From: an uncultured virus (IMG/VR IMGVR_UViG_2710724122_000003)
Lineage: Duplodnaviria > Heunggongvirae > Uroviricota > Caudoviricetes
Reading direction: 5' to 3' (one strand)
IMG/VR virus record: IMGVR_UViG_2710724122_000003
Coordinates: 52,066-72,065 of that record
DNA: 20,000 nucleotides
Position 1 is the stretch's first letter, and every line of letters begins with the position of its first letter. The notes below the pieces were generated by a model that saw only the letters and a program-made list of their open reading frames with translations, had not been told where the DNA came from and searched no databases. The position numbers and the translations under genes were made by a program. Of this stretch, positions 179-19,183 are shown piece by piece.

Positions 179-282
179 AAGCAAATAAAGGTGTGTATGC
201 TTTGTTATTAGGCTCTGGAGTATCCTATTCAGCTAATATTCCTACTAACCGGGGAATACTTACAGAAAGTTATATCCTTTAA
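160..282 (+). pseudogene. N-terminal remnant of a SIR2-like (NADase) protein
   Basis: Reads SLSFSTEANKGVYALLLGSGVSYSANIPTNRGIL, matching the sirtuin N-terminal NAD-binding loop (LLGxGxSxxAxIPT). It has no start codon or RBS and ends at a TAA overlapping the helicase stop codon. Confidence 0.6.
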
Positions 283-2072
283 ACACTTTCCATTTTAACG
301 GCATAGGCCTTATCTACAAATTGAACATGTTGTTGTAAATGCATGTAGTTGTTTTCTTGAATGGAAGGAGCCCATACACATAATAACTTTCTAGCTCTAG
401 AAAACGCTACATAACCTACACGTGCTTCTTCTATTTCTCCATTTTTTCCAAGCCACTCCTTAAGCTGAGATTCGTATTCAGCCATTACCAATACACATTC
501 CGCTTCTTGACCTTTTGCATCATGAATGTTTAAAACAGAGCCTTCACTTTCAGAAAAGTGCCCTTGTAGCTCTACTTGCTCTACGAGATGTGATAACATG
601 GTATTCTTTGATGCTTTAACTTGATTCTTCCATTTGTAATTAAGCATATTTAGTTTTTTCCCTATAGATTTACCATACAGTTTTTTTGATTCTTCCATCA
701 GAAATTTTTTCAGTACTACAAACAGCTCTTCCACCGATGTTTCTGTTAATACCAGGTTATCTAAAAACTGAAGCGTAAAGATCTGCAATTTCTTCCACAT
801 AAACATACTATATCCAATTTCAACTAATGCAATATAATTGGGGTGTTCATTAAAAAATAAATAGCTGAAGGCTTCACTCATTCTTTCAACAGCTCTGTCA
901 AATTCATTTCTCCGCTTATATGAGATAGCCAATATGAGATTTTGCAAAATTTGAAAGCGACGATAATGCTCTTTTGCTAATTTCTTAAAAAAAGGGCTTA
1001 CTTCCACTTCTTGTTTTTTTAAAAGATTATTTATATTTTTCACATAATCATTCCGTCTAGCTAGAATCATAAATGGCTTCTTTTGTTCCTCACATTCTAT
1101 ATCTGTACAAATACTTTGAAACAATTGAATAGCCTCTGAAGCCTCTTTAATATCTTTTATAAATATCACCTTTTGCTTTCTTGTAGCATTGTTACCAGCT
1201 CCAGTCTGCTCAATTTCTGTTTTATAATTAGCAAACTGGACAATGTGTTGCGTACTCCGAAAATTGTTGGTTAACATATAGTTTCTTTGACTCTCATTGT
1301 TCCACTTTGCTTGAAATATTTCTGGCTTTGCTCCTGTAAAGCTATAAATTGATTGATTTGTATCCCCGACGCAAAAGAACGAAGAATGTTCTAGCAAAGA
1401 AAATAACTTCTCTTGATAATAAGTAACATCTTGATACTCATCTACAAGAATATATTTAAAGCGGGAACTAAATGCATTTCGAATATGACCATACTTTTTT
1501 AAAATAAGATAAGAAAGATAAATCACATCTTGTTGATCTATGTACCCTTTATTTTTAATAAAGCTCTTCCAGGTCAATGCATCTGAAGAAGAAATCTTAT
1601 TTCTATAGCAATAAGGATTTCCCTTTTCATCACGGCCCAGGCTCTCGAACGCTTTAAATATACTCTCATTAATATGATAATGGGGGCGTCCTAACATATT
1701 TGCAATATAATCTTTATATCCCCTAGCAAAGCCCACAGAAGCAAGTTTATATGGTATCCCTTCCTTATGCTTAAAGTGTGAATAGGGTTTAATCACATGC
1801 TCCAATAAAAATGAATGAATTGTTCCTATAAACAGCTCATTAGGTAGCTGCACTCCTTCATTTTGTAGTCGCATCATGATTTCTTCTTTAGCCGCATTGG
1901 TATAAGTAATACAAGCAATCCCGGACAAAGCATTTATGCGATTTTCAATTATATATTTTAACCGCTCTATCAATAACGTCGTTTTACCACTTCCAGGTCC
2001 AGCTTGTACAGTAATTGAATCAGTATGAGGAGCACATGCTATACTTTTCCGGAAATCATCATTATCAACCAT
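279..2072 (-). CDS. gajB: UvrD/Rep superfamily-1 helicase, Gabija GajB-like
   Basis: Walker A AGPGSGKTT, ITYTNAA, GTIHSF, Walker B LVDEYQD, VGDTNQSIYSF, NFRS, IHDAKGQE, YVAFSRA. Overlaps the upstream OLD nuclease stop. RBS GAGGAGG spacing favours the ATG at 2072 over TTG at 2075. Confidence 0.85.
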   Translation of the reverse strand: MVDNDDFRKSIACAPHTDSITVQAGPGSGKTTLLIERLKYIIENRINALSGIACITYTNAAKEEIMMRLQNEGVQLPNELFIGTIHSFLLEHVIKPYSHFKHKEGIPYKLASVGFARGYKDYIANMLGRPHYHINESIFKAFESLGRDEKGNPYCYRNKISSSDALTWKSFIKNKGYIDQQDVIYLSYLILKKYGHIRNAFSSRFKYILVDEYQDVTYYQEKLFSLLEHSSFFCVGDTNQSIYSFTGAKPEIFQAKWNNESQRNYMLTNNFRSTQHIVQFANYKTEIEQTGAGNNATRKQKVIFIKDIKEASEAIQLFQSICTDIECEEQKKPFMILARRNDYVKNINNLLKKQEVEVSPFFKKLAKEHYRRFQILQNLILAISYKRRNEFDRAVERMSEAFSYLFFNEHPNYIALVEIGYSMFMWKKLQIFTLQFLDNLVLTETSVEELFVVLKKFLMEESKKLYGKSIGKKLNMLNYKWKNQVKASKNTMLSHLVEQVELQGHFSESEGSVLNIHDAKGQEAECVLVMAEYESQLKEWLGKNGEIEEARVGYVAFSRARKLLCVWAPSIQENNYMHLQQHVQFVDKAYAVKMESV

Positions 2073-3945
2073 CAAATCTTACCTCCTCTTCATTCGTAAG
2101 AAAACTAAATACCTGCTTGATATATGCTGGAATATGAAGAACTTTCCCTTTATTCAATTCATCTAATATGAACTGAGAGAATTGCCCCTTCTCCTTTGAA
2201 ATAACTTCATAGGCTTCTTTTGCAAATTCGTGCCCGTCCAAAGTAACAATTCTTTCCCTTTCTGCTTTTGTTCCAATATCGTATGTTTGAATTAATTCAC
2301 GAAAGAAAGATACATTATTCTCCATCATCAAATCATATTCAAATGTTTTAAGATTACTAGATATATAAATATTAGAGGATGTGCTAAAATCATTAATTAA
2401 ACCAGCTGTTCTTGAACAGACTGGAAACTGACCAAATTTCGTAGGATAAACTGCCTCTTTTACAACCTTATCGTCACTTCCAATCACTTCATCCCCATGC
2501 ATGTCTATTACAGGAACAGATTCTGGATCACTATCAGTCAAAACAGCACACTTCATATCTAATCCCTTTGATCCAAATAACTGTAAAAACGGTCTAAATG
2601 CTACACCATCTACTGAAATAATAGATATCCCTTCACTTTCTAATGTTGTATCTTCTCCCGCGTATCCCTTTTGTAGCATAGAGAAAAATTTCGGTATTAA
2701 TAGACGTTCTGCAATTCCTTCTACTAATAAGACCCTTCTACCAAAGAAAATATCAGATTTGGTAGCATCTAACCATCTTTCTAAATACCGTTTATAATCT
2801 CTTTCCTCTTTTTTATTGGTATCAAAAATTGTTCCAATACGTTTAGATAATGTCTTATTGTTCCCCTTATAAAACACTACTAAACTATCCAGTTCTGCAT
2901 GAGAACTAACGTGTGAAGAATGGGTTGTCATAATAACCTGGCCCACGACTTTCTGATTAAAGAAATAATTAGCTAAGAACTTTTGTAAATGACTATGCAG
3001 ATGAGCTTCCGGTTCCTCAACAATTAAAAGTGGAAACACATAGTCATGATTTTGATTTCGCTTTTCCTTAATGGCTGTATATTGAGTAAGTAAAAGGCTA
3101 ATATACAGCAAATTATTATAACCAAGGCCATTCATATCAACAGAATGTACTCTGTCTTCATTTGAACCGATTAGAACCTTTAAATCTTTCAATAAAGCGT
3201 CATAGTCACTTTCTCCCATTTGGATTTTTACTTGCTGTCTCATAGTTCCTGTAATTTTTCTAAGGTGTTCATTGATATCACTCTGTACCTTCTGAATTTC
3301 TCTACCTTGCATAATTTGCTCATTAAGCTCATCAATTTTCCCTGAAATCTTATGAAGCTCCTCTTCCCCAAGATCGAAATTTTTTAGGATTCTCTGCAAT
3401 TGACCAGAGGACTTTTTTAATTCAGCATTTGCATCTCTAAGAGCCCCTACATACTCGACTCCAAACTTGGATAGCATATTAAAATCAAAGGTGTCTAATG
3501 TTTCACGCTCCCCACCATAAATTATCCACTCATACTCATGAAGGGGTAGCTGAATTTTGCTAATAGGGGTAGCATCAAGAGGAGCTGAAACCGAAATATT
3601 TGCCTTTGGTTTGTACTTGTAGGTAAGTTTTGCCTCTCCTGGATTCCTTGTTAGCCATCTACTTGTAATAGCAAGATCGTTTTCTGTTTCGATTCCTTTT
3701 AAAGTTGCCTCAATTGTAATCTCTGGCCAGTTCCCTTGAATATTGAGTCCACTCCAAAAATCCTCTTGTTGTAATGTTCTTTTTCGTAATGAGTAATTAC
3801 TATTAAAGATAAGACTCAATGCCTCTAAAAAATTGGATTTCCCCGCATTATTTTCTCCAATGATTATAGATAAGCCTTCATTCAAGCTTACATTAAACTC
3901 TGAAAAGCTTCTGTAATTCAAAATTTTCACATCAGATATATACAT
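2065..3945 (-). CDS. gajA: OLD-family ATP-dependent endonuclease (ABC ATPase + TOPRIM), Gabija GajA-like
   Basis: Walker A GENNAGKS, signature-like NGLGYNN, Walker B IVEEPEAHLH, TTHS switch, TOPRIM LLVEGIAE and TDSD. RBS GGAGG. Coupled to a UvrD gene, the Gabija / class 2 OLD arrangement. Confidence 0.85.
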   Translation of the reverse strand: MYISDVKILNYRSFSEFNVSLNEGLSIIIGENNAGKSNFLEALSLIFNSNYSLRKRTLQQEDFWSGLNIQGNWPEITIEATLKGIETENDLAITSRWLTRNPGEAKLTYKYKPKANISVSAPLDATPISKIQLPLHEYEWIIYGGERETLDTFDFNMLSKFGVEYVGALRDANAELKKSSGQLQRILKNFDLGEEELHKISGKIDELNEQIMQGREIQKVQSDINEHLRKITGTMRQQVKIQMGESDYDALLKDLKVLIGSNEDRVHSVDMNGLGYNNLLYISLLLTQYTAIKEKRNQNHDYVFPLLIVEEPEAHLHSHLQKFLANYFFNQKVVGQVIMTTHSSHVSSHAELDSLVVFYKGNNKTLSKRIGTIFDTNKKEERDYKRYLERWLDATKSDIFFGRRVLLVEGIAERLLIPKFFSMLQKGYAGEDTTLESEGISIISVDGVAFRPFLQLFGSKGLDMKCAVLTDSDPESVPVIDMHGDEVIGSDDKVVKEAVYPTKFGQFPVCSRTAGLINDFSTSSNIYISSNLKTFEYDLMMENNVSFFRELIQTYDIGTKAERERIVTLDGHEFAKEAYEVISKEKGQFSQFILDELNKGKVLHIPAYIKQVFSFLTNEEEVRFDG

Positions 3946-4304: not shown

Positions 4305-5564
4305 ATGAATCATAGTTTCAAAAAAAAATGTAAAGTTTGTGAAACTCCATATTTAATAAAATATCAAGTTGGTTATGTACCAGAAAACCATTTTTCTTTC
4401 GAGTGCCCAACTTGTGGAGTAATGATTGAAGGAACGATTAATGTAGATAATAAAAGTGTTAGAATAGGTTGGAATTTCGATAATTTAATAGATTTCACTG
4501 GAAATATTTCAGAATCTAAAGAAGGTTACTGTATGCAACTAACCGGTGAATTCTATGATGAGAAACTCTCTTCTCTTAAGGATTATTTTCCTTTTACCCC
4601 AAGCCCTTTTATGAGAAACCTTGGTCCTCATATAGAAAAAATGAATGGGTTAGCGGTTTACTTGGCTGAAGATATTCAACAAGATGTCAACAATCATAAA
4701 AATCTTGTCAATTTAGTACTTAGTAACAAGAATAATGTTAAATATGTTTATTCAGAACTAAAGAGATTAACTAGGAATTTAAATATACCTGAAGAAAAAT
4801 TTGCTACTGATTACAATATAAACAGATATTCTATATTGTTCTCGGCAATTGTAAATAGTATTAGCCCTTTATTAAAGCTAAATGAGAAAAAGTTCCAGGT
4901 AGATGATATTAAAAATAATCTTTATAAAATGTATGAGGATAATATTGAATTTCAAAAAGTTAAAGACTTATTTCAAGATAAATTACCTAGCCTGATTAAT
5001 TCTTTAATTAACGCTTTTTATTCTTCAATAAGTATTATTCCTAATATTGTTCCTATAATTACTTCCGAAACGTTCAACCATAAGAAGATTGAAAAAATAA
5101 AGGAGGATTATGGTCTAAGCACAGCTAACTATAAGACTCTACTGCAAAATTATGCTGAAAACTATGAAATACTTGGGAAAATAATTCCTTTAATAGTTGT
5201 TATTGATAATATCATTAACAGAAAAGACATTAATAAATTTTCAGACAATACTAATTCACTAGAAAATTTTTTAAATAAACCAATTGGATTTCAAATCCAA
5301 TACTTAAAAAAAATATCTTCAGGTGTTTCCAGATACAATGACCTATCTATTCTAAATAATAAAATACGAAATGCTATAAATCATGCCTCAGTGGAATATG
5401 AGTCTATTAGTCAAAAATTAATTTTTAAAGATAAAAAAATCACAACAGAAAAATATTTAATTGAATTTGCTGAGGAAAACTACGTGATGTTATACCTTCA
5501 ATTATATTGCCTATTCATCGTTTGTTCACTGGCTAAGAAGTTTTCAAAAGTAGATGCTACTTAA
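4305..5564 (+). CDS. Hypothetical protein with N-terminal Zn ribbon and C-terminal HEPN-like motif (candidate RNase effector)
   Basis: CKVC...CPTC cysteine pairs and an RNAINH (Rx4H) motif at 5367-5384. RBS AAGGAG at 4291-4296 favours ATG 4305 over GTG 4296. Confidence 0.65.
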   Translation: MNHSFKKKCKVCETPYLIKYQVGYVPENHFSFECPTCGVMIEGTINVDNKSVRIGWNFDNLIDFTGNISESKEGYCMQLTGEFYDEKLSSLKDYFPFTPSPFMRNLGPHIEKMNGLAVYLAEDIQQDVNNHKNLVNLVLSNKNNVKYVYSELKRLTRNLNIPEEKFATDYNINRYSILFSAIVNSISPLLKLNEKKFQVDDIKNNLYKMYEDNIEFQKVKDLFQDKLPSLINSLINAFYSSISIIPNIVPIITSETFNHKKIEKIKEDYGLSTANYKTLLQNYAENYEILGKIIPLIVVIDNIINRKDINKFSDNTNSLENFLNKPIGFQIQYLKKISSGVSRYNDLSILNNKIRNAINHASVEYESISQKLIFKDKKITTEKYLIEFAEENYVMLYLQLYCLFIVCSLAKKFSKVDAT

Positions 5565-5848: not shown

Positions 5849-6463
5849 ACGTCAACTTAATTTGCTAAAAAGAACACAAGAAACAATAAAAAATCAATAG
5901 ACCTAAATATCTTAATGTTAGATGACGCAGAAGCAACTTAATTTAACAACTATTTTTTCTTGTAGCAGAACTAGAATCAAATAGGTTAGAAAAGCACCTT
6001 AGGATATTTTTTCACTTTCTTTTGAACGCCATACTAAATATTAACTATATTTGCAAGTCGAATTCTATATTGATTACTAAAAAATAATCTCATATTAATT
6101 TTAATTTAATTAAAAATCCAGAAAACAAATCATATTCTGGACCTAATTAGAAATGAATCCCATCTAAAGCAACTTTCAAGTTTGTAAATATATATTTTCA
6201 AAAAAATTTATATATTTTAATCGTGCGGTTATTTATATCTATTTAAAATATACTTAAATTTCTTCCGATTTTATTATAATATATATATATAAATTATTAA
6301 CTGCTAGGTAATAAAAGACATTTTTTTGATAATGAATAAAATTTTATCCGAATAGGAAAATATGTTATTCAAAGGGTTACCAACATAATTATTTCACTGA
6401 AATTGTCTCTAACTATTACATTTTATCATGCGGTTACATAAAAATAAGGGGAGATTTTTAGGG

Positions 6464-7654
6464 ATGCCTTCGGATAAAGAATTCAAAGCTGTCGTGGATC
6501 AATTACGTTTATTAAGAGATCGGAATTTGACTATTCAAGATTTAAAAAATGCAAAACAACAACTTCATGAAAAAAATTATTTTAATTTAATAAATGGTTT
6601 TGAAACCCTTTTATTAGATAACCCTAAAGGTACATCTAAATACTATACTAATGTTTTCTTTGACGACTTTTTAAATCTTTATAAACTTGATAATCAACTT
6701 TCAAGTTTAATATTCCAAAAAATTTCGGAACTTGAAAACAAATTAAAGACTTCTATATCTTATCATTTTAGTAAAAATCATTGCTCTACTTTATGTGATA
6801 ATAATAAATACATTGAACTTACTAGTTATTCTCTTCCTAAAAGAACAGATGGACCTAAAGAATATACTAAACATTTTAATAAACATAAACTTTTTAAAAA
6901 AAACGCTTATTTTGAAGGCATTTTTAGTGGCGATTTTTCTGGACAAGTGACTTATGATTCCGCCCGTGGTGGGAAAACTATACTCGAAGGAACATTTACA
7001 GGCAGATTTGGATCTACATCAATAAATACAGTCCAAGGTAAGTGCACTTTTTTTAATTCGAATCAAGCATCATTAGTAACACTTATTCGTTCACTTGCCC
7101 CTTCATCAGGAACATCTATTACTACAACAATAACCATTAGGGATGAAAGAATATATGGTTTAAATTATATCGATGAATGCAAAACTAGATTTCCATTTAT
7201 AAATGAATATAATAACCCTCCATTTTGGGTTGTTATTAAAACCCTAATGTTTAATGATTTAATTCTTTTACTTTATGGACTAAAGAAACGTACTTTTGAT
7301 GCTATTTTAAGGGATTTTAACCTAAAACCCATAGACAAAAAGAAATTTCTAAATTCTTTGCAAATCATTAGAGAATTACGTAATACGTGTGCACATTTCG
7401 AATTGGTTAATCGTTTCAGAACATCAAGTTCTTTAAAAATTAATCAGCATTTAATTTCCGAATTAGGTCTTACACCTATGAGAGCAAATAAATTCGTCCT
7501 TAAGTTATATGATGTTTTAAAAATCTTAAAACAATACATTGATTTAACGGAAATTAAATTATTATTATGGAAATATCGTTATGAAGAAAAGCGTGATATT
7601 GCAATTTCTTTATTAGATAGAATGGGAAACTCTAATATTTTTTACTGGATATAA
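6464..7654 (+). CDS. Abi family protein (Abi_2, AbiD/AbiF-like HEPN RNase)
   Basis: KEFKAVVDQLRLLRDRNL, NYFNLINGF, LYKLDNQLSSLIFQKISELENKLKT, PPFWVVIKTLMFNDL and catalytic RNTCAH (7379-7396). RBS AAGGGGAG at 6446-6453 favours ATG 6464 over 6428. Confidence 0.85.
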   Translation: MPSDKEFKAVVDQLRLLRDRNLTIQDLKNAKQQLHEKNYFNLINGFETLLLDNPKGTSKYYTNVFFDDFLNLYKLDNQLSSLIFQKISELENKLKTSISYHFSKNHCSTLCDNNKYIELTSYSLPKRTDGPKEYTKHFNKHKLFKKNAYFEGIFSGDFSGQVTYDSARGGKTILEGTFTGRFGSTSINTVQGKCTFFNSNQASLVTLIRSLAPSSGTSITTTITIRDERIYGLNYIDECKTRFPFINEYNNPPFWVVIKTLMFNDLILLLYGLKKRTFDAILRDFNLKPIDKKKFLNSLQIIRELRNTCAHFELVNRFRTSSSLKINQHLISELGLTPMRANKFVLKLYDVLKILKQYIDLTEIKLLLWKYRYEEKRDIAISLLDRMGNSNIFYWI

Positions 7655-10567: not shown

Positions 10568-11737
10568 TTACTTAATAACTTCATTAAGCCATTCGGGTTT
10601 GATTTGTTCACCTTGAACCAACCGTAACTCCCTAAACAAAAAAACTAAATCCGCCCCTGAAAATAGCTTTACAGGATATCCATCCTGATATACTTCCTCC
10701 TGAGCCTGTTTTGTATAATATGAAGTTGTAACAAAGATACCATATTGTCCACGAGATAACCGTGCCACTAAGCGTGATAGGTGCCTTGGCTCAACCCTAG
10801 TTTTCCTGTCAAATCTTTTTGCTTCCCCCAGAAAATTTATATCATAGGCCAAGGGATATGGTAAGCTAAAATGCCCTATAAAATCGAATCCCCCATCTTT
10901 AGTCGGCCTTGTTTGCGTAATAGAGTGAGTTACATCTTTTAACTGTCGAAATAAAGCTACCGTTACTGCTTCAAATTGTATTGGAGATAGCGAAACTAAC
11001 TGTTCCAATATTTTAGCATCTGGACTTCCTTCTTTGGGTAATTGACTATCTAGAGTTCTTATTTTATTTTTCCATACATGCAATTTGTTTATTTTGCCAT
11101 TTTTGTATTCTCTCCATGAAGAAGGTGCATCCTCATCTATAACTTTGATCTCCTCAAAATCATTTGCTCTTGCTCGATTATGTAACCAAGTAATATCTAC
11201 TTCTTCAATATCAAGTATTGATAGGTGACATCTATAATTTTTTATTGGTAAACCACTTTTATTATCTACAAACCAAGTAAGTTCAAGTTTATCTAATATA
11301 CAAAGTCCATTAAACCTAACAATTCCCGTCCTTGTTTTTGAAAAATGTAGTATTGGGGGGACATGCTTAAAATTACCATCTAATATTAAATGATTGATAA
11401 CTTCAAGCGTTTTATTTCCTTCAAAGTCATCATATCTCTTTTCATAATTGAATTTTGCATCACCCCAATATAAAATTTCTCCCTCAGATAAATCTACAAT
11501 ATCATGCCAGGGATTACTTTCCCCCGAGTTTGTATCACTTGTCACCAATATTAGATATGCAGGTGCATCACTAAATCGGGATACATATTTTAAAGGGCGA
11601 ATCCCTGGCGAATTTCTCATACCACTGTTCTTTATGTTTATCCAACGTGAAAACTGGTCTTCTTCATTACGGGTTGAAGCTTTATCTATGTATTCATGTC
11701 CTAACCTATATAAGTTTCCCAACATAATTGCCCCCAT
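10568..11737 (-). CDS. AspBHI/MspJI-like modification-dependent (type IV) restriction endonuclease: SRA-like N-domain + Mrr catalytic domain
   Basis: N-terminal GIRP, NPWHD, YWGDAK, PPILHF, RFNGLC. C-terminal FEAVT, TKDGGFDFIG, EAKR, LVARL, GIFVTTS, QAQEE. No cognate methyltransferase in the window. Confidence 0.85.
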   Translation of the reverse strand: MGAIMLGNLYRLGHEYIDKASTRNEEDQFSRWINIKNSGMRNSPGIRPLKYVSRFSDAPAYLILVTSDTNSGESNPWHDIVDLSEGEILYWGDAKFNYEKRYDDFEGNKTLEVINHLILDGNFKHVPPILHFSKTRTGIVRFNGLCILDKLELTWFVDNKSGLPIKNYRCHLSILDIEEVDITWLHNRARANDFEEIKVIDEDAPSSWREYKNGKINKLHVWKNKIRTLDSQLPKEGSPDAKILEQLVSLSPIQFEAVTVALFRQLKDVTHSITQTRPTKDGGFDFIGHFSLPYPLAYDINFLGEAKRFDRKTRVEPRHLSRLVARLSRGQYGIFVTTSYYTKQAQEEVYQDGYPVKLFSGADLVFLFRELRLVQGEQIKPEWLNEVIK

Positions 11738-12977: not shown

Positions 12978-14249
12978 ATGACAGAAATAATGACAGGCTT
13001 ACGTTATTTAATGAATGTCAAAGGGCAAAAAAATAAAGATATTGCGAAGATCCTTGGCATCTCTACCCAAGCAGTTTCACTATGGACAAAGAAAGGCACT
13101 ATTCCCAATAAACATTTAGAAAGACTCGCAAATCACTATAAAGTATCCCAAGAGTATTTAGTAAATCCACTCACTGCTGATACAATTAGTGTCATTGAAA
13201 AAGATGCAACGCCAATGATGCAAATTGTCCATAATGGACTTAACATGTATGGAGATTTTAATGTTGTGCTGCAGCCAACCAGTGATAAAATAGCGCGTAC
13301 AAATTATGAGAATACAGTTCGTAAACTGCGAAATATTGAGGAATTTTCTGAGTATGTGAAAATAAACGAGCTAACTGATTTGCATACGATCTTTCCAGAA
13401 GGACAATGCGCCGTTTGGGGTGTAAAGTCGGGTACCAATGACACAACAAAAAAGCAATACAATAAACTAAATCTCGGTGATTTCGTACTATTTTATCAAG
13501 ATAAACATTTTTATAACCGTGCAATTGTAGCATATAAAATACATTCACCTAAACTAAGTGAATATTTATGGGAAACCTCTATTTTTGAACACATATACTT
13601 TCTACAGGATGTTCAACCATATAACTTATCCGTTGTACGATTTAATGAAATTGTATATGGAAAATCAGAAGATTTCCCAGTAATGGCATTCCGCGTTTTA
13701 AACCGTGAACAAAGTTTACAGATTATTGATGCATTTGATATTGAAGCTGATTATTCTCCAACTAAATTAACTGACAGAAAACAATCTCGTGAAGATATTT
13801 TGAAAGCACTGTTAAATTTAGAAAATAATAAAGAACTTGACCGTGATACAAAACGAAAATATCGCATTGAACAAAGTTTATTACGTGAATTTTTATTTAA
13901 TGGAAAAGAAGAAGTTACATGTGCCTGCTGCCAAACAAAACTTTCACCAGAATTTTTTGCAACAGCTCATATTAAAAAACGCTCACACTGTTCAACAGAA
14001 GAAAAACTAGATGTCAATGTTGTAATGCCTCTTTGCTACTTAGGATGCGACATGCTGTTTGAAAAAGGTCTACTTGTCGTCAATTCACATGGTCATTTCC
14101 AACGTACTGATGTAATAAATAAAAAGGTTACCTATGAAGGACGTTTAGGCACATTGCTTGCAAAGTATGACCAAAGACCTTGTTCTTATTGGAACAAAGA
14201 AACAGCCCAATATTATCAGTGGCATTACAAACACCATATAATGAAATAA
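12978..14249 (+). CDS. XRE-HTH + PUA/EVE-like + HNH endonuclease (probable modification-dependent restriction nuclease)
   Basis: N-terminal KNKDIAKILGISTQAVSLW...IP...LERLANHYKVS (XRE HTH). Central WGV/GDFVLFY domain. C-terminal RIEQSLLR, CACC, AHIKKRS, LCYLGCDMLFEKG (HNH). RBS AAGGAG. Confidence 0.8.
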   Translation: MTEIMTGLRYLMNVKGQKNKDIAKILGISTQAVSLWTKKGTIPNKHLERLANHYKVSQEYLVNPLTADTISVIEKDATPMMQIVHNGLNMYGDFNVVLQPTSDKIARTNYENTVRKLRNIEEFSEYVKINELTDLHTIFPEGQCAVWGVKSGTNDTTKKQYNKLNLGDFVLFYQDKHFYNRAIVAYKIHSPKLSEYLWETSIFEHIYFLQDVQPYNLSVVRFNEIVYGKSEDFPVMAFRVLNREQSLQIIDAFDIEADYSPTKLTDRKQSREDILKALLNLENNKELDRDTKRKYRIEQSLLREFLFNGKEEVTCACCQTKLSPEFFATAHIKKRSHCSTEEKLDVNVVMPLCYLGCDMLFEKGLLVVNSHGHFQRTDVINKKVTYEGRLGTLLAKYDQRPCSYWNKETAQYYQWHYKHHIMK

Positions 14250-14347
14250 AAAAGCTACAATAAGTCTTTGTATAAAAGATGAAGCCAAATCATGCAATAA
14301 GCATTAGCGGACATTAAAAATAATAAAAAACAGAATAATTGAAGCGA

Positions 14348-14430
14348 TAAAATAATATTTGGATTGGCATCCGATACCATATTATGATGGTTCAAGTCGC
14401 AGGAAGGCACCTTAGGGTGTCTTTTCTTTT
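14348..14430 (+). repeat. Array repeat copy 1 (internally shortened)
   Basis: TAAAATAATATTTGGATTGGCATCCGATACCATATTAT-GATGGTTCAAGTCGCAGGAAGGCACCTTAGGGTGTCTTTTCTTTT. Confidence 0.85.
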
Positions 14431-14439
14431 TTCTTAAAA

Positions 14440-14476
14440 GGGGCTTTCCAGCACTTCGGAAAAAAAGCACGCTAAG
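14440..14476 (+). repeat. Tn4430-like left terminal inverted repeat
   Basis: GGGGCTTTCCAGCACTTCGGAAAAAAAGCACGCTAAG versus Tn4430 IR as I recall it, GGGGTACCGCCAGCATTTCGGAAAAAAACCACGCTAAG. Has the Tn3-family GGGG...CGCTAAG pattern. Confidence 0.8.
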
Positions 14477-14575
14477 AGTATGCATGATTTTATACAGTTT
14501 TTCAGCTAATCCAGTAACAAACGAGAACTCTAAATCCGCGCCAGGATAGGAATGTATAAAAAAATGAATAGAGTG

Positions 14576-14615
14576 AAAAGGCGGATTCCTTGTGAAATTA
14601 GGGATCTGCCTTTTT
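14576..14615 (+). terminator. Intrinsic terminator just before dif-like site 1
   Basis: AAAAGGCGGATTCCT...AGGGATCTGCCTTTTT. Confidence 0.65.
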
Positions 14616-14619
14616 CCTT

Positions 14620-14648
14620 GCTACCAATAATGAGACGTTATGTTAACC
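14620..14648 (+). other. Xer/dif-like recombination site 1
   Basis: GCTACCAATAA-TGAGACG-TTATGTTAACC. Arms match B. subtilis dif (ACTTCCTAGAA-TATATA-TTATGTAAACT) at 7/11 and 9/11, with a 7-bp centre. Confidence 0.7.
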
Positions 14649-14815
14649 GAGTATGTATACAATATTCAACCGAAAACAAACAACATATCACCTCTCTCAA
14701 ATGGTAAAATAGGGAAAAGGGATATTCTAAATAATACCTTTAGAAACCACTCTTTATCACATAGGAGTTACCAAAAAAAGAGATGAAAAAGAAAAAAAGT
14801 AAAGGGGGGGCATAA

Positions 14816-14998
14816 GTGAAATATATTAATGGATTGTACATATCACTTATATTGATGATGTTCATTAATTTACTTAATATTACAATGTTTGATAATAAAT
14901 ACTCAGGGATAACAATGTATATCTCTTCCGTTATATTCACAATTGGAAGCGCATTTTTCATAAATGCAAAACGGCTTAAAATTAGTGAGAAAAAATAA
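14816..14998 (+). CDS. Small two-TM membrane protein (cassette 1 cargo)
   Basis: 60 aa, GTG after a G-rich RBS, extended -10 TGGTAAAAT at 14702-14710, hairpin AAGTCCT...AGGACTT at 15024-15054. Confidence 0.6.
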   Translation: MKYINGLYISLILMMFINLLNITMFDNKYSGITMYISSVIFTIGSAFFINAKRLKISEKK

Positions 14999-15077
14999 AA
15001 CCTCTTGCAACTCAAAATCACTTAAGTCCTCCAGTTAAACAATCTGAAGGACTTTTAATAGTTTTCTAAATACATTG

Positions 15078-15106
15078 AGTCCCGATAATGTTGCGTTATG
15101 TTAACC
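15078..15106 (+). other. Xer/dif-like recombination site 2
   Basis: AGTCCCGATAA-TGTTGCG-TTATGTTAACC. Arms 7/11 and 9/11 to B. subtilis dif, 7-bp centre, right arm identical to site 1. Confidence 0.7.
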
Positions 15107-15185
15107 TTACATGAATATCCTATGCATCCAAATTTGCACAAAGTTGTCCTTGCTAATGATACAATTAGGATAACGGAGGGATATT

Positions 15186-15494
15186 ATGAGTTATATCGAA
15201 TTTTATGGAATACCGTTTCTTATAATCGGTACTGGAATATTCGTAATTATCAAGGCTGATTCACCCAAAATTAGGGCTAGAAATCTATCATTCGTAATGA
15301 TCTGTTTAGGGATAAATATACTCGCAATTCCAATGGATTTATTTATAAGTATGATGGCAACAGTTTCTCCATATAGTACTGAACTTGATTTTTGGATAGG
15401 AATTTTTTTTACTCAGGGAATACCGCTCCTCATACTACTTGTAGCTTTGATAAAGTGGTTTATCCGCAAGGGCAAAGAAAAAATCGACACATAG
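15186..15494 (+). CDS. Three-TM membrane protein (cassette 2 cargo)
   Basis: 102 aa, RBS GGAGG, extended -10 TGATACAAT at 15157-15165, stop 12 bp before dif-like site 3. Confidence 0.7.
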   Translation: MSYIEFYGIPFLIIGTGIFVIIKADSPKIRARNLSFVMICLGINILAIPMDLFISMMATVSPYSTELDFWIGIFFTQGIPLLILLVALIKWFIRKGKEKIDT

Positions 15495-15506
15495 AATTTT
15501 AAAATG

Positions 15507-15534
15507 ACTTCCACTAACGATAATTATGTAAATA
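15507..15534 (+). other. Xer/dif-like recombination site 3
   Basis: ACTTCCACTAA-CGATAA-TTATGTAAATA. Arms 8/11 and 9/11 to B. subtilis dif, canonical 6-bp centre. Followed by hairpin AATAAGCTGTCC-ATAT-GGGCAGCTTATT. Confidence 0.75.
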
Positions 15535-15568
15535 AGCTGTCCATATGGGCAGCTTATTGTATTTTCTG

Positions 15569-15584
15569 CTTAGCGTGTTTTTCC
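15569..15584 (-). repeat. Partial right terminal IR (inner half)
   Basis: CTTAGCGTGTTTTTCC is the reverse complement of GGAAAAACACGCTAAG, matching the inner half of the left IR. The outer ...CCCC end is missing. Confidence 0.6.
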
Positions 15585-15673
15585 ATCTCTCCTTATTAAT
15601 CTAGGCAGAATAATATTTATAACAATAATAGGTAGTAGGTACTCTTAGGTAGATGGCGATATGATGATACCCC

Positions 15674-15787
15674 TCAATGAACAAAACAATTTAACATGGT
15701 AAAATAATATTCGGCTTGGCATCCAATACATATTATTAAAATTAAGATGGTTCAAGTCGGAGGAAGGCACCTTAGGGTGTCTTTTTT
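15674..15787 (+). repeat. Array repeat copy 2
   Basis: TCAATG...TTAACATGGTAAAATAATATTCGGCTTGGCATCCAATACATATTATTAAAATTAAGATGGTTCAAGTCGGAGGAAGGCACCTTAGGGTGTCTTTTTT. Confidence 0.9.
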
Positions 15788-16021
15788 CGGTAATTATATT
15801 AATCATTTGTAATGCATTCAAAGAGTTTATAAGAAGCTTGATGGACGTCAACAAGGGCGATTCGCTAAACAATTAGCTTTATATGTCAAAATGTTACGTG
15901 ATAACAAAAACATACTGTGATTTTACTTTATAAGAAATTTTTTCAATGAATAACGGTAAAATTTAACAATATTTTACCGTTTATACCAGTGGGGGCTACG
16001 GCTCTCTATTTTTTATTTTCG

Positions 16022-16087
16022 TTCGACAAAATATGACAAACTTGTTGTAACTGTTTCTGTTATGATAGTTTCGGAAATCTTACATTT
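16022..16087 (+). promoter_or_regulatory. Promoter module with tandem Spo0A-box-like motifs
   Basis: TTCGACA (reverse complement of the 0A box TGTCGAA), then TATGACA 10 bp later, extended -10 TGTTATGAT, and AATCTTACATTT. Confidence 0.6.
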
Positions 16088-16108
16088 TATCATTGGAGGA
16101 ACTACATA

Positions 16109-16702
16109 ATGGGTAAAATTTTTAAGTTTGGGTGTTTAGGATTTATTGCTTTAATCGTACTTGGTGCTATTGCGGCGGCATTAGGTGGCGGAGACGACGA
16201 GAAAGAAAAAGCTTCTTCTGAGCCAAAGCAAGAAACACAAGCGCCAGCTGCTAAAGAAGAGCCTAAGAAGCAAGAGGCTAAGAAAGAAGAACCTAAAAAG
16301 GAACTTTCTAAAGCAGGCGAGTCTTCTAAAGTTAAAATCGCTGTAGGTTCTGTTGAATCAATTGATTCAGTAGGTGGAGAATATTTAAAAGAAAAAGCAC
16401 AAGGCGTGTTTAAAGTAGTCGAAATTACTATTACAAACAATCAAAAAGATGCTATCACTGTTGATGCTAACAGTTTTAAATTAGTTGATAATAAAGATCG
16501 TGAATTTACTTACTCTACACAAGCTCAAACTGCTTTCGATGTAGGTAATGGTGGAAGTTCTGATTTCTTCTTAAAACAACTTAACCCTGGTTTATCTCAA
16601 ACAGGAAAAATCATCTTCGATGTTCCTGCTGACGCACAGGGATTAGTGTTAAAAGCTCGTGGCGGTATGATGGGTAAAGAAATTAAGTTAAAAGTAGAAT
16701 AG
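16109..16702 (+). CDS. DUF4352-domain membrane-anchored surface protein (Ig-like)
   Basis: N-terminal TM, KEEPKK low-complexity linker, AQGVFKVVEITITNNQKDAITVDANSFKLVD...LNPGLSQTGKIIFDVP. RBS GGAGG. Confidence 0.85.
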   Translation: MGKIFKFGCLGFIALIVLGAIAAALGGGDDEKEKASSEPKQETQAPAAKEEPKKQEAKKEEPKKELSKAGESSKVKIAVGSVESIDSVGGEYLKEKAQGVFKVVEITITNNQKDAITVDANSFKLVDNKDREFTYSTQAQTAFDVGNGGSSDFFLKQLNPGLSQTGKIIFDVPADAQGLVLKARGGMMGKEIKLKVE

Positions 16703-16704
16703 TT

Positions 16705-16735
16705 GAAGGCACTCGAAAGAGTGCTTTTCTTTTTT
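16705..16735 (+). terminator. Intrinsic terminator
   Basis: GAAGGCACTC-GAAA-GAGTGCTTTTCTTTTTT; near-identical copy at 17545-17576. Confidence 0.8.
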
Positions 16736-16736
16736 C

Positions 16737-16855
16737 TCAATGCCCAGCATTACTTAATGTGGGAAAATAATATTTGGATGGGAGTCCACCAATACATATT
16801 ATTAAAATTAAAGTGGTTCAAGTCGGAGAAAGGCACCTTTAGGTGTCTTTTCTTT
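16737..16855 (+). repeat. Array repeat copy 3
   Basis: TCAATG...GAAAATAATATTTGGATGGGAGTCCACCAATACATATTATTAAAATTAAAGTGGTTCAAGTCGGAGAAAGGCACCTTTAGGTGTCTTTTCTTT. Confidence 0.9.
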
Positions 16856-16936
16856 ATGAATAAGAGGTACAGCAGAAATAATAGATCATAGGACAGAAAT
16901 CTAGTCTAAAACTTCTAAACTATCTTTTTATTTCCT

Positions 16937-17001
16937 TTCGACATAATATGACAATATAAAGATATTTAATTTGTTATTATTAACGTGGCAATCTTACATT
17001 T
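16937..17001 (+). promoter_or_regulatory. Promoter module with tandem Spo0A-box-like motifs
   Basis: TTCGACATAATATGACAA...TGTTATTAT...AATCTTACATTTT, same layout as 16022-16087. Confidence 0.6.
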
Positions 17002-17022: not shown

Positions 17023-17541
17023 GTGGGAAAAATATTTAAGTTTGGATGCCTAGGCATTATAGCTTTATTTGTAATCGGAATAATTGCTATGATTGCTGGT
17101 GGCGGAGATTTAACAGAAAAGACTTCAACAGACACTAAAGCGGTATCAAAAGAAGGTGTATCTTCTGATGTAAAAATCGCTGTAGGATCTATGGAAACAG
17201 TAGATTCTGTAGGTAATGAATACTCAAAAGAACAAGCACAAGGTGTCTTTAAGATTTTAGAAGTTACACTTACTAATAATCAAAAAGACGCTATCACCGT
17301 TGATACTAACAGCTTTAAATTGGTAGATAACAAAGGTCGTGAATTCACATCTTCAGTACAAGGTCAAACATCTTTTGACTTAGCTAACGGTGGAAAAACT
17401 GACTTCTTCTTAAAACAATTGAATCCTGGTCTAACACAGACAGGTAAAATTGTATTTGATATACCCAAAGATGCTGCAGGACTTTTCTTAAAAGCTAGTG
17501 GCGGTATGACAGGTGAAGAAATTAAGTTAAAAGTAGAATAG
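17023..17541 (+). CDS. DUF4352-domain membrane-anchored surface protein, paralog of 16109..16702
   Basis: GTG start after GGAGG. Same MGKIFKFGCLG N-terminus, NNQKDAITVD core and EIKLKVE end, with a shorter linker. Confidence 0.85.
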   Translation: MGKIFKFGCLGIIALFVIGIIAMIAGGGDLTEKTSTDTKAVSKEGVSSDVKIAVGSMETVDSVGNEYSKEQAQGVFKILEVTLTNNQKDAITVDTNSFKLVDNKGREFTSSVQGQTSFDLANGGKTDFFLKQLNPGLTQTGKIVFDIPKDAAGLFLKASGGMTGEEIKLKVE

Positions 17542-17754: not shown

Positions 17755-18036
17755 CTATTTTAAATTACCTTCGTAAAAAGCAACTCCATTTTGAACATGT
17801 TTTAAATACCACGTAATCGTTCCGCCACAAACATTTTCATTAAAACTATTAGCATATACTCCATTTGAGTGATAAAGAGTTCTTTTGAATTTACCATTAG
17901 AATACTCATAAGGAATTGAACATGTTGCTTGCTTCGGAGAGCTCACATCTTTTTGCGTATCAGCTGAAGCTGCCCCAATTCCTCCTGTTAATGCAATACC
18001 AGTTGCTAATGCTCCTACTACTAATTTCTTAAACAT
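17755..18036 (-). CDS. Secreted LCI-fold antimicrobial-peptide-like protein
   Basis: Signal peptide MFKKLVVGALATGIALTGGIGAASA. SNGVYANSF...ITWYLK...FYEG resembles B. subtilis LCI (SPNGNFAASF...TKWIFK...GIYE). RBS AAGGGGG. Terminator at 17724-17744. Confidence 0.7.
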   Translation of the reverse strand: MFKKLVVGALATGIALTGGIGAASADTQKDVSSPKQATCSIPYEYSNGKFKRTLYHSNGVYANSFNENVCGGTITWYLKHVQNGVAFYEGNLK

Positions 18037-18892: not shown

Positions 18893-19183
18893 ATGTTTAA
18901 GAAAGTAATAATTGGAACATTAGCAACTGGAATTATGTTATCTGGTGCTGGAGGAGTATTTGCGGAGACACCTACTGATACAAGTGTAAAATTAAAAATT
19001 GATAATAAAAAAAGTTTTGTTAAAAAACTTGAAAAACAAGACTTTCCTGGTTACAAGTCAAAAAAGGAAATACCCGCTGTAAAAGAGTGGAATGGAGTGA
19101 CTTGGTATTTAAAAGGAGCAACTGAAGTAAGTAAAAATTCATGGACAGGACATTATGAAGGATGGCGAACAAGTAATAATTAA
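18893..19183 (+). CDS. Secreted LCI-fold-like protein
   Basis: Signal peptide MFKKVIIGTLATGIMLSGAGGVFA. NGVTWYLKG...SWTGHYEGWR parallels LCI DGTKWIFK...YWVGIYEVW. RBS AAGGGGG. Confidence 0.65.
   Translation: MFKKVIIGTLATGIMLSGAGGVFAETPTDTSVKLKIDNKKSFVKKLEKQDFPGYKSKKEIPAVKEWNGVTWYLKGATEVSKNSWTGHYEGWRTSNN

Follow-up and report, generated by a model that had tools for sequence, protein, structure and literature searches.

Gene cassettes between dif-like sites in a transposase-less, Tn4430-ended locus of the Bacillus cereus group

Composition of the locus

We analyzed a locus at positions 14440-15584 of a 20,000 nt stretch of DNA, here referred to as the window, which makes up the final 20 kb of a 72-kb record classed as provirus (IMG/VR IMGVR_UViG_2710724122_000003). 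The sequence character of the window is plasmid-like, and a Bacillus toyonensis plasmid (NZ_CP126518.1) is 99.5% identical to window positions 14300-15785. The locus carries terminal inverted repeats of Tn4430 type, two small genes and three dif-like sites. We consider it rather probable that it is a decayed, transposase-less Tn4430-ended shell whose gene cassettes are exchanged at the dif-like sites, the enzyme probably being the Xer recombinases of the host. The following features were found from left to right:

14440-14476, plus strand: left terminal inverted repeat, Tn4430 type, 37 nt, GGGG...ACGCTAAG
14477-14619, plus strand: conserved subterminal segment with plasmid matches, ending in a hairpin and T-run (~14580-14615)
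14620-14648, plus strand: head site A1, left arm GCTACCAATAA, 7-base centre TGAGACG, right arm TTATGTTAACC
14652-14668, plus strand: 17-nt palindrome of the ATGTATA-N3-TATWCA type, 4 nt after the A1 core
14816-14998, plus strand: cassette 1 gene, 60-aa protein with two hydrophobic stretches, GTG start after AAAGGGGGGG
15026-15077, plus strand: inter-cassette spacer, terminator hairpin (15026-15052) and T-run, conserved AATAGTTTTCTAAATACATTGAG tail leading into A2
15078-15106, plus strand: head site A2, left arm AGTCCCGATAA (spacer class), centre TGTTGCG, right arm TTATGTTAACC
15110-15127, plus strand: palindrome after A2 (CATGAATATCCTATGCAT)
15186-15494, plus strand: cassette 2 gene, 102-aa protein with three hydrophobic stretches, ribosome binding site GGAGGG
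15507-15534, plus strand: tail site B, ACTTCCACTAA-CGATAA-TTATGTAAATA, 11-6-11 layout
15531-15558, plus strand: hairpin of 12 pairs between the B site and the right end, conserved in seven loci
15569-15584, minus strand: right terminal inverted repeat, inner 16 nt only, the outer 22 nt missing or replaced

The left end was identical to the 38-bp end of Tn4430 at 32 of 38 aligned positions, with one gap. As reference we used oligonucleotides given in the PMC10250215 supplement together with the intact Tn4430 copy in pBMB126. A consensus built from 28 matches across the other loci compared equalled the Tn4430 end. This is in agreement with the initial annotation, which had placed a Tn3-family inverted repeat of Tn4430 type here and the inner half of its inverse at 15569-15584. 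The latter forms a 14-nt arm with 93% complementarity to the left end. Its context of B site, hairpin and end carries full-length right ends in L004, L005, L006, L034, L044, L074 and L157, in which the hairpin 15531-15558 is kept as well. Full-length ends at the equivalent place were present in L004, L005, L044 and L165-L168 and in contigs of X4 and X16. Moreover, metagenome contigs supply the missing outer end precisely where the window diverges (15565 or 15583). Because of this conserved context and the contigs continuing into the outer half, we regard 15569-15584 as a truncated end and not as a chance match. A remnant of the outer right end at ~15651-15671, considered as a candidate, had no support from alignment.

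For the region from 14440 to 14625 there were matches in 420 plasmid records, mostly at 60-90% identity, and in 325 records the match covered 80% or more of the region. By alignment no homology was detected between the segment 14477-14619 or the shell interior and the interior of Tn4430. The hairpin and T-run at ~14580-14615 may insulate the array from outside transcription. No transposase or recombinase gene is located between the ends, as had been annotated: the two cassette genes are the only sizeable same-strand open reading frames (ORFs), and their 60-aa and 102-aa products matched no Pfam or NCBIfam family.

The three dif-like sites share one orientation and lie 458 and 429 bp apart. Their coordinates, their common direction and their dif-like arms were as initially annotated, but the sites do not form a single kind. 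They fall into two kinds, a head site A with a 7-base centre (two copies) and a tail site B with a 6-base centre (one copy). The A pattern ATAATNNNNNGTTATGTTAAC had three matches in the window at up to three mismatches compared to 0.99 expected, and two of these were exact (14627-14647 in A1, 15085-15105 in A2). The B pattern yielded two such matches compared to 2.19 expected, which is not significant; the B site is accepted as real because its context is conserved at other loci, and not on account of the window statistics. The left arm of A1 and its flank belong to a class, here named platform, that is common next to left ends at many loci. The centre and right flank of A2 recur in L003, where they are joined to a left arm of the platform class.

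A sites generally show four variable bases after the core, followed by a palindrome of 17-19 nt (ATGTATA-N3-TATACAT type) that may be an accessory or operator sequence. Several known operator types were considered for this palindrome; compared by eye, none of them fitted its spacing.

In 9 of 10 genomes a site with CCTATAATATATATTATGT, present in a single copy, was identified as the chromosomal dif of the B. cereus group; in full it reads ACTGCCTATAA-TATATA-TTATGTTAACT. This agrees with the 28-bp site containing AATATATATT that is placed at the GC-skew maximum in PMC3210476. The A arms (GCTACCGATAA or AGTCCCGATAA on the left, TTATGTTAACC on the right) are nearly identical to the arms of this dif, and the asymmetric arm pair of dif is shared by the A arms and the B arms (ACTTCCAATAA and TTATGTAAAT).

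As proposed initially, each interval holds one small membrane-protein gene. The protein of cassette 1 is annotated as WP_000875167.1 in L001, L002 and L005 and that of cassette 2 as WP_053446080.1; both are hypothetical proteins in the annotation of NZ_CP126518.1. Promoter-like sequences were read by eye in front of both genes, namely an extended -10-like TGGTAAAAT at 14702-14710 for cassette 1 and TTGCAC-N20-TACAAT at 15134-15165 for cassette 2. The genes and interval sizes of the annotation stand; its promoters were recognized by eye only and neither was listed by a consensus promoter scanner. The spacer 15026-15077 was also found behind B sites in L003, L013, L022, L075, L131 and others, and contigs join a B site to position 15024 with 3-5 letters between them.

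Distribution, cassette content and breakpoints

Sites and cassettes recur in other arrangements across the B. cereus group. An exact A site was present in 62 of 71 species-representative genomes of the genus, with 373 matches compared to 2 for the reversed pattern. B-type sites numbered 4-8 per genome in the five genomes counted (control 0-2). A scan of all prokaryote species with the A pattern gave at least 128 stretches, and the palindrome following the pattern was used as a filter to separate Bacillus-type sites from chance matches. Among the matches listed, the palindrome was conserved after 79 of the 135 distinct A-pattern matches with enough flank, and all but four of the palindrome-bearing matches came from the B. 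cereus group or related Bacillaceae. The exceptions (L057, L065, L109 and L120) comprise one Paenibacillus record, one Ornithinimicrobium record and two other loci; the Ornithinimicrobium record may be a contamination. The listed matches lacking the palindrome were scattered chance matches in unrelated organisms. A sites were found on megabase contigs too, i.e. on chromosomes, and arrays occurred also without Tn4430-type ends.

A minimal complete element is located in L044 (1304-1938) and measures 635 bp. Its left end is followed by a conserved stretch of ~160 nt that closes with a hairpin, and then by an A site, the palindrome, a promoter, a gene for a 63-aa membrane protein, a terminator, a B site, a hairpin and the right end. 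Parts of this element were matched by 731 plasmid records, in many places with both ends present and other cargo between them. Conserved ends enclosing cargo of variable number and identity, which the initial annotation had set as a test, were thus borne out across the homologous ends.

The longer array of L003 (plasmid NZ_CP043832.1) contains one left end, behind which lie seven sites of A or B type and a further dif-like one. Here, a junction of B, terminator, conserved 30-nt tail and A recurs, and the sites are directly orientated, as are all three in the window. L003 also carries an insert of ~277 bp (3344-3620) resembling a MITE (a miniature transposable element with inverted repeats), with 14-nt terminal inverted repeats (GGGGTTCAGCCGAG … CTCGGCTGAACCCC). 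It is located between the B-like left arm and the A-type remainder of a dif-like site.

For the cassette statistics we used 50 A sites whose downstream sequence measured 600 nt or more, leaving out L001, the twin of the window. The first site following A was B in 28 cases (median distance 643 nt) and A in two; neither was present within the flank in 20. A single ORF of at least 35 aa was contained in 21 of the 28 A-to-B cassettes, and 29 of the 37 cassette ORFs ran in the direction of the sites. The cargo includes PlsY, nucleotidyltransferases, DinB-like proteins, a methyltransferase, NUDIX proteins, a nucleoside hydrolase, GNAT and MerR proteins and lipoproteins, besides many small membrane proteins.

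Several individual loci may be mentioned. The plasmid pXO1 (L162, NC_001496.1 50617-51972) carries one shell, which is also found in pBCXO1-type plasmids; between its left end and its right end, the latter partly degenerate, lie an A site, two small genes coding for a helix-turn-helix (HTH) regulator and a hypothetical protein, and a B site. Genes of resistance type were noted beside the sites of other replicons. In plasmid p237 (L144) a fosB-type gene (4395-4811) is located just upstream of an A site. An ORF for an AadA-like nucleotidyltransferase, which is not among the 37 cargo ORFs, lies between the right end at ~1721 and the B site of L074 (1733-2659, minus strand). Furthermore, genes for MerR-type HTH proteins (~185-205 aa, some with DUF3967) were observed in L002 (1614-2174), L004 (1558-2166), L019, L052, L072 and L077, where they lie in divergent orientation, 236-344 nt upstream of A sites lacking a transposon end. 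In L026, L054 and L007 MerR/DUF3967 genes lie within ~2 kb of A sites in other arrangements. These proteins are candidates for binding the palindrome or assisting recombination.

Comparison of the window with its relatives revealed that both cassettes change their context. Cassette 2 (15085-15519) is 98.2% identical to L003 2504-2938, compared to 77.9% in the left shell and 56.7% in the 60 nt right of the B centre. Since L003 joins the left end directly to cassette 2, the window has an extra 458-bp unit reaching from A1 to A2. This unit consists of cassette 1 and the terminator-spacer; the left arm of A1 is of the shell class and that of A2 of the spacer class. Integration of a circle bearing one A site into the A site of the shell would be expected to yield such a product. 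Cassette 1 itself is 98.4% identical in L002, 96.9% in L005, where a second gene follows, and 91.2% in L004, where it leads directly into a B site and a full right end. Its left flanks in these three loci show 54-62% identity, i.e. the level of unrelated sequence.

In contigs from four runs, breaks or joints were found at 14647-14650, 14669, 15001, 15024, 15082, 15116, 15507-08 and 15532-34, coinciding with the edges of sites and spacer. Contig joints from 14429 to 15722 were considered as empty sites and are instead explained by the two copies of a flanking repeat.

The initial annotation had expected breakpoints at the centres of the dif-like sites. This holds for the B sites, where divergence sets in within the 6-base centre or at its left edge in three of the four informative pairs and just after ACTTCC in the fourth. 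The window B site and position 2925 of L003, for instance, are alike in their left context and diverge from within the centre onward. It does not hold for the A sites. Sixteen pairs sharing one flank only were compared, three of which broke in the shared flank and were uninformative. The breaks of the remaining 13 pairs, not all of them independent, were spread over ~37 bp, beginning 11 nt to the left of the core and reaching 26 nt to its right. Six of them fell at the left arm or further left, two in the centre and five in the 4-6 nt before the palindrome. The breakpoints, as far as can be judged from aligned sequences, support a site-associated exchange that is not a clean one.

Proposed mechanism and rival explanations

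According to our proposal the locus would be a decayed member, with its right end truncated, of a large shell family residing on B. cereus-group replicons, and its interior a short array of self-expressed gene cassettes. Each cassette begins with a head A (dif-like arms and 7-base centre), a palindrome of 17-19 nt and a promoter and closes with a tail B, dif-like with a 6-base centre; cassettes other than the last also carry the terminator-spacer leading into the next A. By recombination at A and B, cassettes would be swapped between shells and other contexts, and the 458-bp unit of the window would have been placed between the left arm of the shell's A site and cassette 2 by a circle integrating at A. 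The recombination would be carried out by the two chromosomal Xer recombinases of the host (CodV/RipX homologues). A transposase of Tn4430 type may at some time have mobilized the shell in trans, the internal dif-like site being available for the resolution of cointegrates.

Host XerC/XerD appear to be the most likely enzymes at A and B. All genomes examined (5 of 5 and 9 of 9) had two full-length chromosomal Xer paralogues, and since A and B reproduce both of the different arms of dif, a two-protein host system is an economical candidate. In the surroundings of 67 A-site loci, 72 ORFs reach 150 aa or more, and none of them encodes a tyrosine or serine recombinase; no tyrosine recombinase was found in the 72-kb record of the window. 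Four of 11 site-bearing records had no PF00589 match. This lack of a tyrosine recombinase and the dissimilarity of the sites to TnpI sites make host Xer the best candidate. The resolution site of Tn4430 in pBMB126 (ACAACACAAT-ATTA-ATTGTGTTGT with direct repeats) has a symmetric core with a 4-base spacer, and the TnBth4 site of Tn5401 type (ATGTCCGCTAAT-TAAT-ATTAGCGGACAT) likewise has a symmetric core unlike A or B.

Three further candidates were rejected. TnpI was discarded because the real Tn4430 and TnBth4 sites in L161 have no counterpart in the window. An integron-type integrase was discarded as the small recombinases described below reached 29-31 bits with the integron-integrase model, the cut-off of which is 265. 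Integration at the chromosomal dif had been considered with regard to A sites near mid-chromosome, yet these lie 78-660 kb from dif.

Several observations weigh against the proposal. With respect to the shell, a Tn3-family transposase was found in none of the five site-bearing plasmids searched. A matching 5-bp duplication flanked one of the 12 end pairs inspected (window included), namely TATAT in L164, which is of low complexity; both ends are complete in the relatives L044, L164, L165, L167 and L168. The left end of the window is flanked by TAAAA and nothing comparable is present on the right, where the end is truncated. Because of this truncation the window shell could not move as a unit as it stands. 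Transposition of the shell is therefore unsupported, and of the non-autonomous Tn3-family platform proposed in the initial annotation it is the Tn4430-type ends and the lack of a transposase that stand.

With respect to the sites, the A arms are dif-like, yet their centre has 7 bases. Xer sites are known with centres of 6-8 bp, for instance 8 bp in cer (PMC5357621). In addition, the centres of A1 and A2 (GAGACG and GTTGCG) differ at 3 of 6 positions, so that a conservative exchange of two strand pairs cannot have made both. Unlike centres would be tolerated by a one-sided strand exchange with a junction resolved by replication, as reported for cer and for phage integration at dif (PMC5357621). 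The breaks at A sites are not confined to the centre, and the five breaks beside the palindrome are not predicted by a simple exchange at the centre borders. In seven complete chromosomes the A sites lie 78-660 kb away from dif, so there is no integration at dif. The run data consist of assembled contigs and can therefore show neither circles nor rare deletions; circular intermediates are proposed here from the arrangement of the units.

Small tyrosine recombinases (181-196 aa), occurring in all 71 genomes at E <= 1e-15 and often in several copies, could act in trans and likewise count against host Xer. That A and B are true recombination sites served by these plasmid- or prophage-borne enzymes seems unlikely, although there is a case for it. 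W02 and W05, two site-bearing plasmids, encode recombinases of 190 aa that are 92.6% identical to each other, and a cassette tail is located 54-400 nt from the gene in L172 and L144. A 181-aa recombinase gene is also found 35-40 nt upstream of a left end and A site in L170, L171 and L163, and ~6 further copies reach an A site. However, a single recombinase usually acts on near-symmetric arms, whereas A and B copy the asymmetric pair of dif. The 181-aa gene is paired with a phage regulator of the ArpU family, and 450 nt of downstream sequence contained no dif-like site in any of 20 other copies. The same TTTTAAATCTA is followed by inserted repeats or ends of other kinds, a pattern suggestive of an insertion hot spot. 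The four site-bearing records and the 72 neighbouring ORFs mentioned above, all without a tyrosine recombinase, speak against this explanation as well. For the same reasons, i.e. the pairing with ArpU and the usual lack of an adjacent dif-like site, the 181-aa recombinase was rejected as the cassette integrase and its position was read as an insertion hot spot.

The operon concerned encodes an ArpU-family regulator of 160 aa and the tyrosine recombinase of ~181 aa and was observed in L170 (1457-2533), L171 (1512-2593), L163 (1-437) and L173 (923-2055). In the first three it ends 35-40 nt before the Tn4430-type left end and A site, and in L173 it ends 81 nt before an A-like site heading an array of three cassettes. 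Of ~65 copies of the recombinase gene, ~6 run on through a left end to an A site; most other operon copies have a different repeat after the identical TTTTAAATCTA.

According to another explanation, A and B would be maintenance or regulatory sequences, namely a cer-like site for multimer resolution together with an operator, plus terminators, with no mobile cassettes as such, and the mosaic would have arisen by homologous recombination or gene conversion in stretches of 30-140 bp. The spacer-side breaks at A sites keep this explanation under consideration, as does the spread of the A breaks over ~37 bp with 5 of 13 beside the palindrome. Homology is on offer in the conserved head (core, palindrome and promoter with TGGTAnAAT) and in the junction of B, terminator, spacer and A, and the divergent MerR/DUF3967 genes 236-344 nt from A in six loci suggest a fixed backbone context. 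On the other hand, the conserved stretches are very short for a RecA-dependent exchange, and three of four B-site pairs break within the 6-base centre. Strict co-orientation, one-gene units and diverse cargo are not expected of regulatory repeats, and the mimicry of both dif arms has no regulatory rationale. We consider this explanation to be quite improbable.

That the sites are resolution sites of Tn4430- or Tn5401-type TnpI supplied in trans by autonomous transposons, as the Tn4430-type ends and the resemblance of some B left arms (ACTTCCGCTAA) to the TnBth4/Tn5401-type motif ATGTCCGCTAA (9 of 11 positions) might suggest, can practically be dismissed, since the Tn4430 and TnBth4 cores are perfect palindromes with a 4-base spacer and direct repeats whereas A and B have a dif-type right arm and no such repeats, the interior beside the ends has no Tn4430 homology and the five site-bearing plasmids searched lack a Tn3-family transposase.

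Exchange of cassettes at A and B by host Xer is thus the explanation we prefer. A much broader form of it appears possible rather than probable. It would see in these loci an integrase-less, integron-like cassette system in which circles are cut out and stacked by the host dimer resolvases and Tn4430-derived shells resolve their cointegrates via the same sites, in most species and on plasmids (some of them well-studied) as well as chromosomes.

Surroundings of the locus and relation to known systems

Outside the Tn4430-type ends of several relatives a common flank was observed, tgatgggcat|GGGG or its complement after CCCC (L162, L165, L167, L168, L041, L044 and L125), which is present on both ends in L165 and L167. 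This flank appears to be an IS231-type end abutting the Tn4430-type end. IS231 has a target preference for Tn4430-type ends. The genes for IS4-family transposases that adjoin L167 and L168 support this reading, and the recurrent flank looks like the result of IS231-type ends inserted at Tn4430-type ends. The flank lies only outside Tn4430-type ends and in relatives; the ends of the window itself are of Tn4430 type.

A remnant of a second terminal repeat, of Tn5401/TnBth4 type, is located at 14261-14315 (…ATGCAATAAGCATTAGCGGACATTA). Its inner part contains a TnpI-type motif as found at the TnBth4 end in pBMB126 (L161 ~5986-6040). As the remnant lies ~125 nt upstream of the Tn4430-type end, two Tn3-family ends stand side by side.

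A repeat of ~110 nt is present in three copies (14321-14425, 15673-15785 and 16736-16851). It ends in a strong terminator hairpin with fold z-scores of -2.7, -3.9 and -1.7, respectively. The repeat was also found just outside the right ends in L044, L026 and L071 and in contigs from other samples. Many of the 410 plasmid records matched by the window search are probably due to this repeat and to the transposon-end segments. A search of the whole window against Rfam gave zero matches at the gathering score and the region 14200-17000 chance-level ones only (E >= 0.29), which indicates that neither the repeat nor the A and B sites belong to a described RNA family in that database. The repeat, or else the left-end segment, may be bcr18, described as a plasmid-only repeat in PMC6542083.

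A cluster of defence genes is located near the locus (279-3945, 6428-7654 and 10568-11737). It contains a Gabija-like pair of an OLD-type ATPase/TOPRIM protein (2065-3945, minus strand) and a UvrD-type helicase (279-2075, minus strand) and also encodes an Abi_2 protein and a restriction endonuclease of AspBHI-N/Mrr type. On the other side of the locus lie two DUF4352 paralogues and two small LCI-fold proteins (16109-16702, 17023-17541, 17755-18036 on the minus strand and 18893-19183). A duplicated upstream segment (repeats D5 and D7) precedes each DUF4352 paralogue, and no A or B sites were found around these genes of the window.

Until now, modules lying between Xer sites have been regarded as peculiar to Acinetobacter plasmids. 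If true, a second system would show that the hijacking of dimer resolution for gene shuffling is a general solution, here in a Gram-positive group that includes insect and food-borne pathogens and in a version whose architecture differs: its sites are direct repeats of two types, its genes are single and expressed on their own, and its shells are of transposon type. Much of the mosaic of small genes on B. cereus-group plasmids would find an explanation as well, annotation would gain a simple pair of motifs with which to delimit accessory units, and there would be a testable case of cointegrate resolution by a transposase-less Tn3-family shell. Since the cargo includes detoxification and modification enzymes and some resistance-type genes, the system bears on the spread of such genes. 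The initial annotation knew of no description of this architecture in Bacillus, and our searches of the literature on dif modules, pdif, Xer, non-autonomous elements of Tn4430 and MIC231 found none either, with many subscription papers lying outside their coverage.

The Acinetobacter dif modules are, according to PMC13141974, accessory units of plasmids between dif-mimicking sites composed of XerC arm, spacer and XerD arm, with no linked recombinase and with Xer as the presumed enzyme. The Bacillus arrays resemble them in having discrete accessory units, dif-mimicking sites, the same unit in different contexts and no linked recombinase. However, the Acinetobacter sites (pdif, on Rep_3/OrfX plasmids) alternate in orientation, with C and D modules and 6-bp spacers, whereas those of Bacillus are all direct repeats. 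The Bacillus arrays alternate between two kinds of site, A having a palindrome and a centre of 7 bases and B a centre of 6 bases; B fits the 11-6-11 layout of the Acinetobacter type, and A has matching arms but the 7-base centre. The Bacillus units, moreover, are mostly single genes with their own promoter and terminator, often inside Tn4430-type ends, and the host and the plasmid backbone are different.

With integron cassettes the Bacillus units share the tandem, co-orientated arrangement of mostly single genes of diverse functions separated by recombination sites, and the difference between the window and L003 resembles an integron-like insertion of one unit at the first site. Unlike in integrons, there is no integron integrase, and the small recombinases are not consistently adjacent. 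Integron cassettes are promoterless and use a folded attC, whereas the Bacillus cassettes have promoter-like sequences, their own terminators and dif-like duplex sites of 28-29 bp.

Miniature inverted-repeat elements of Tn3 origin (TIMEs), MITEBth3 and mobile insertion cassettes (MICs) are transposase-less elements with transposon-type ends, some with passenger genes, and are presumed to be moved in trans (PMC6199540 and PMC4133298). The shell is likewise transposase-less and has a complete transposon-type left end, with the inner 16 nt of the right end in the window and both ends complete in several relatives; in the passages considered, TIMEs, MITEBth3 and MICs are not described with internal dif-like sites or cassette arrays. 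MIC231 has IS231 ends, whereas in several Bacillus loci such ends merely abut the Tn4430-type ends. Tn4430 has the same 38-bp ends and a recombination site just inside its left end, but the shell lacks tnpI and tnpA and its internal site is dif-like and not of the IR1-IR2/DR1-DR2 type.

Finally, as with cer/psi and the integrative mobile elements exploiting Xer (IMEX), host Xer would be exploited by extrachromosomal DNA. In contrast to IMEX, the Bacillus sites are not integrated at the chromosomal dif. They also differ from cer/psi, which are single resolution sites, in being repeated and alternating around cargo, and the accessory palindrome of the A sites is placed, unlike in cer/psi, on the side of the XerD arm at a distance of 4 nt from the core.

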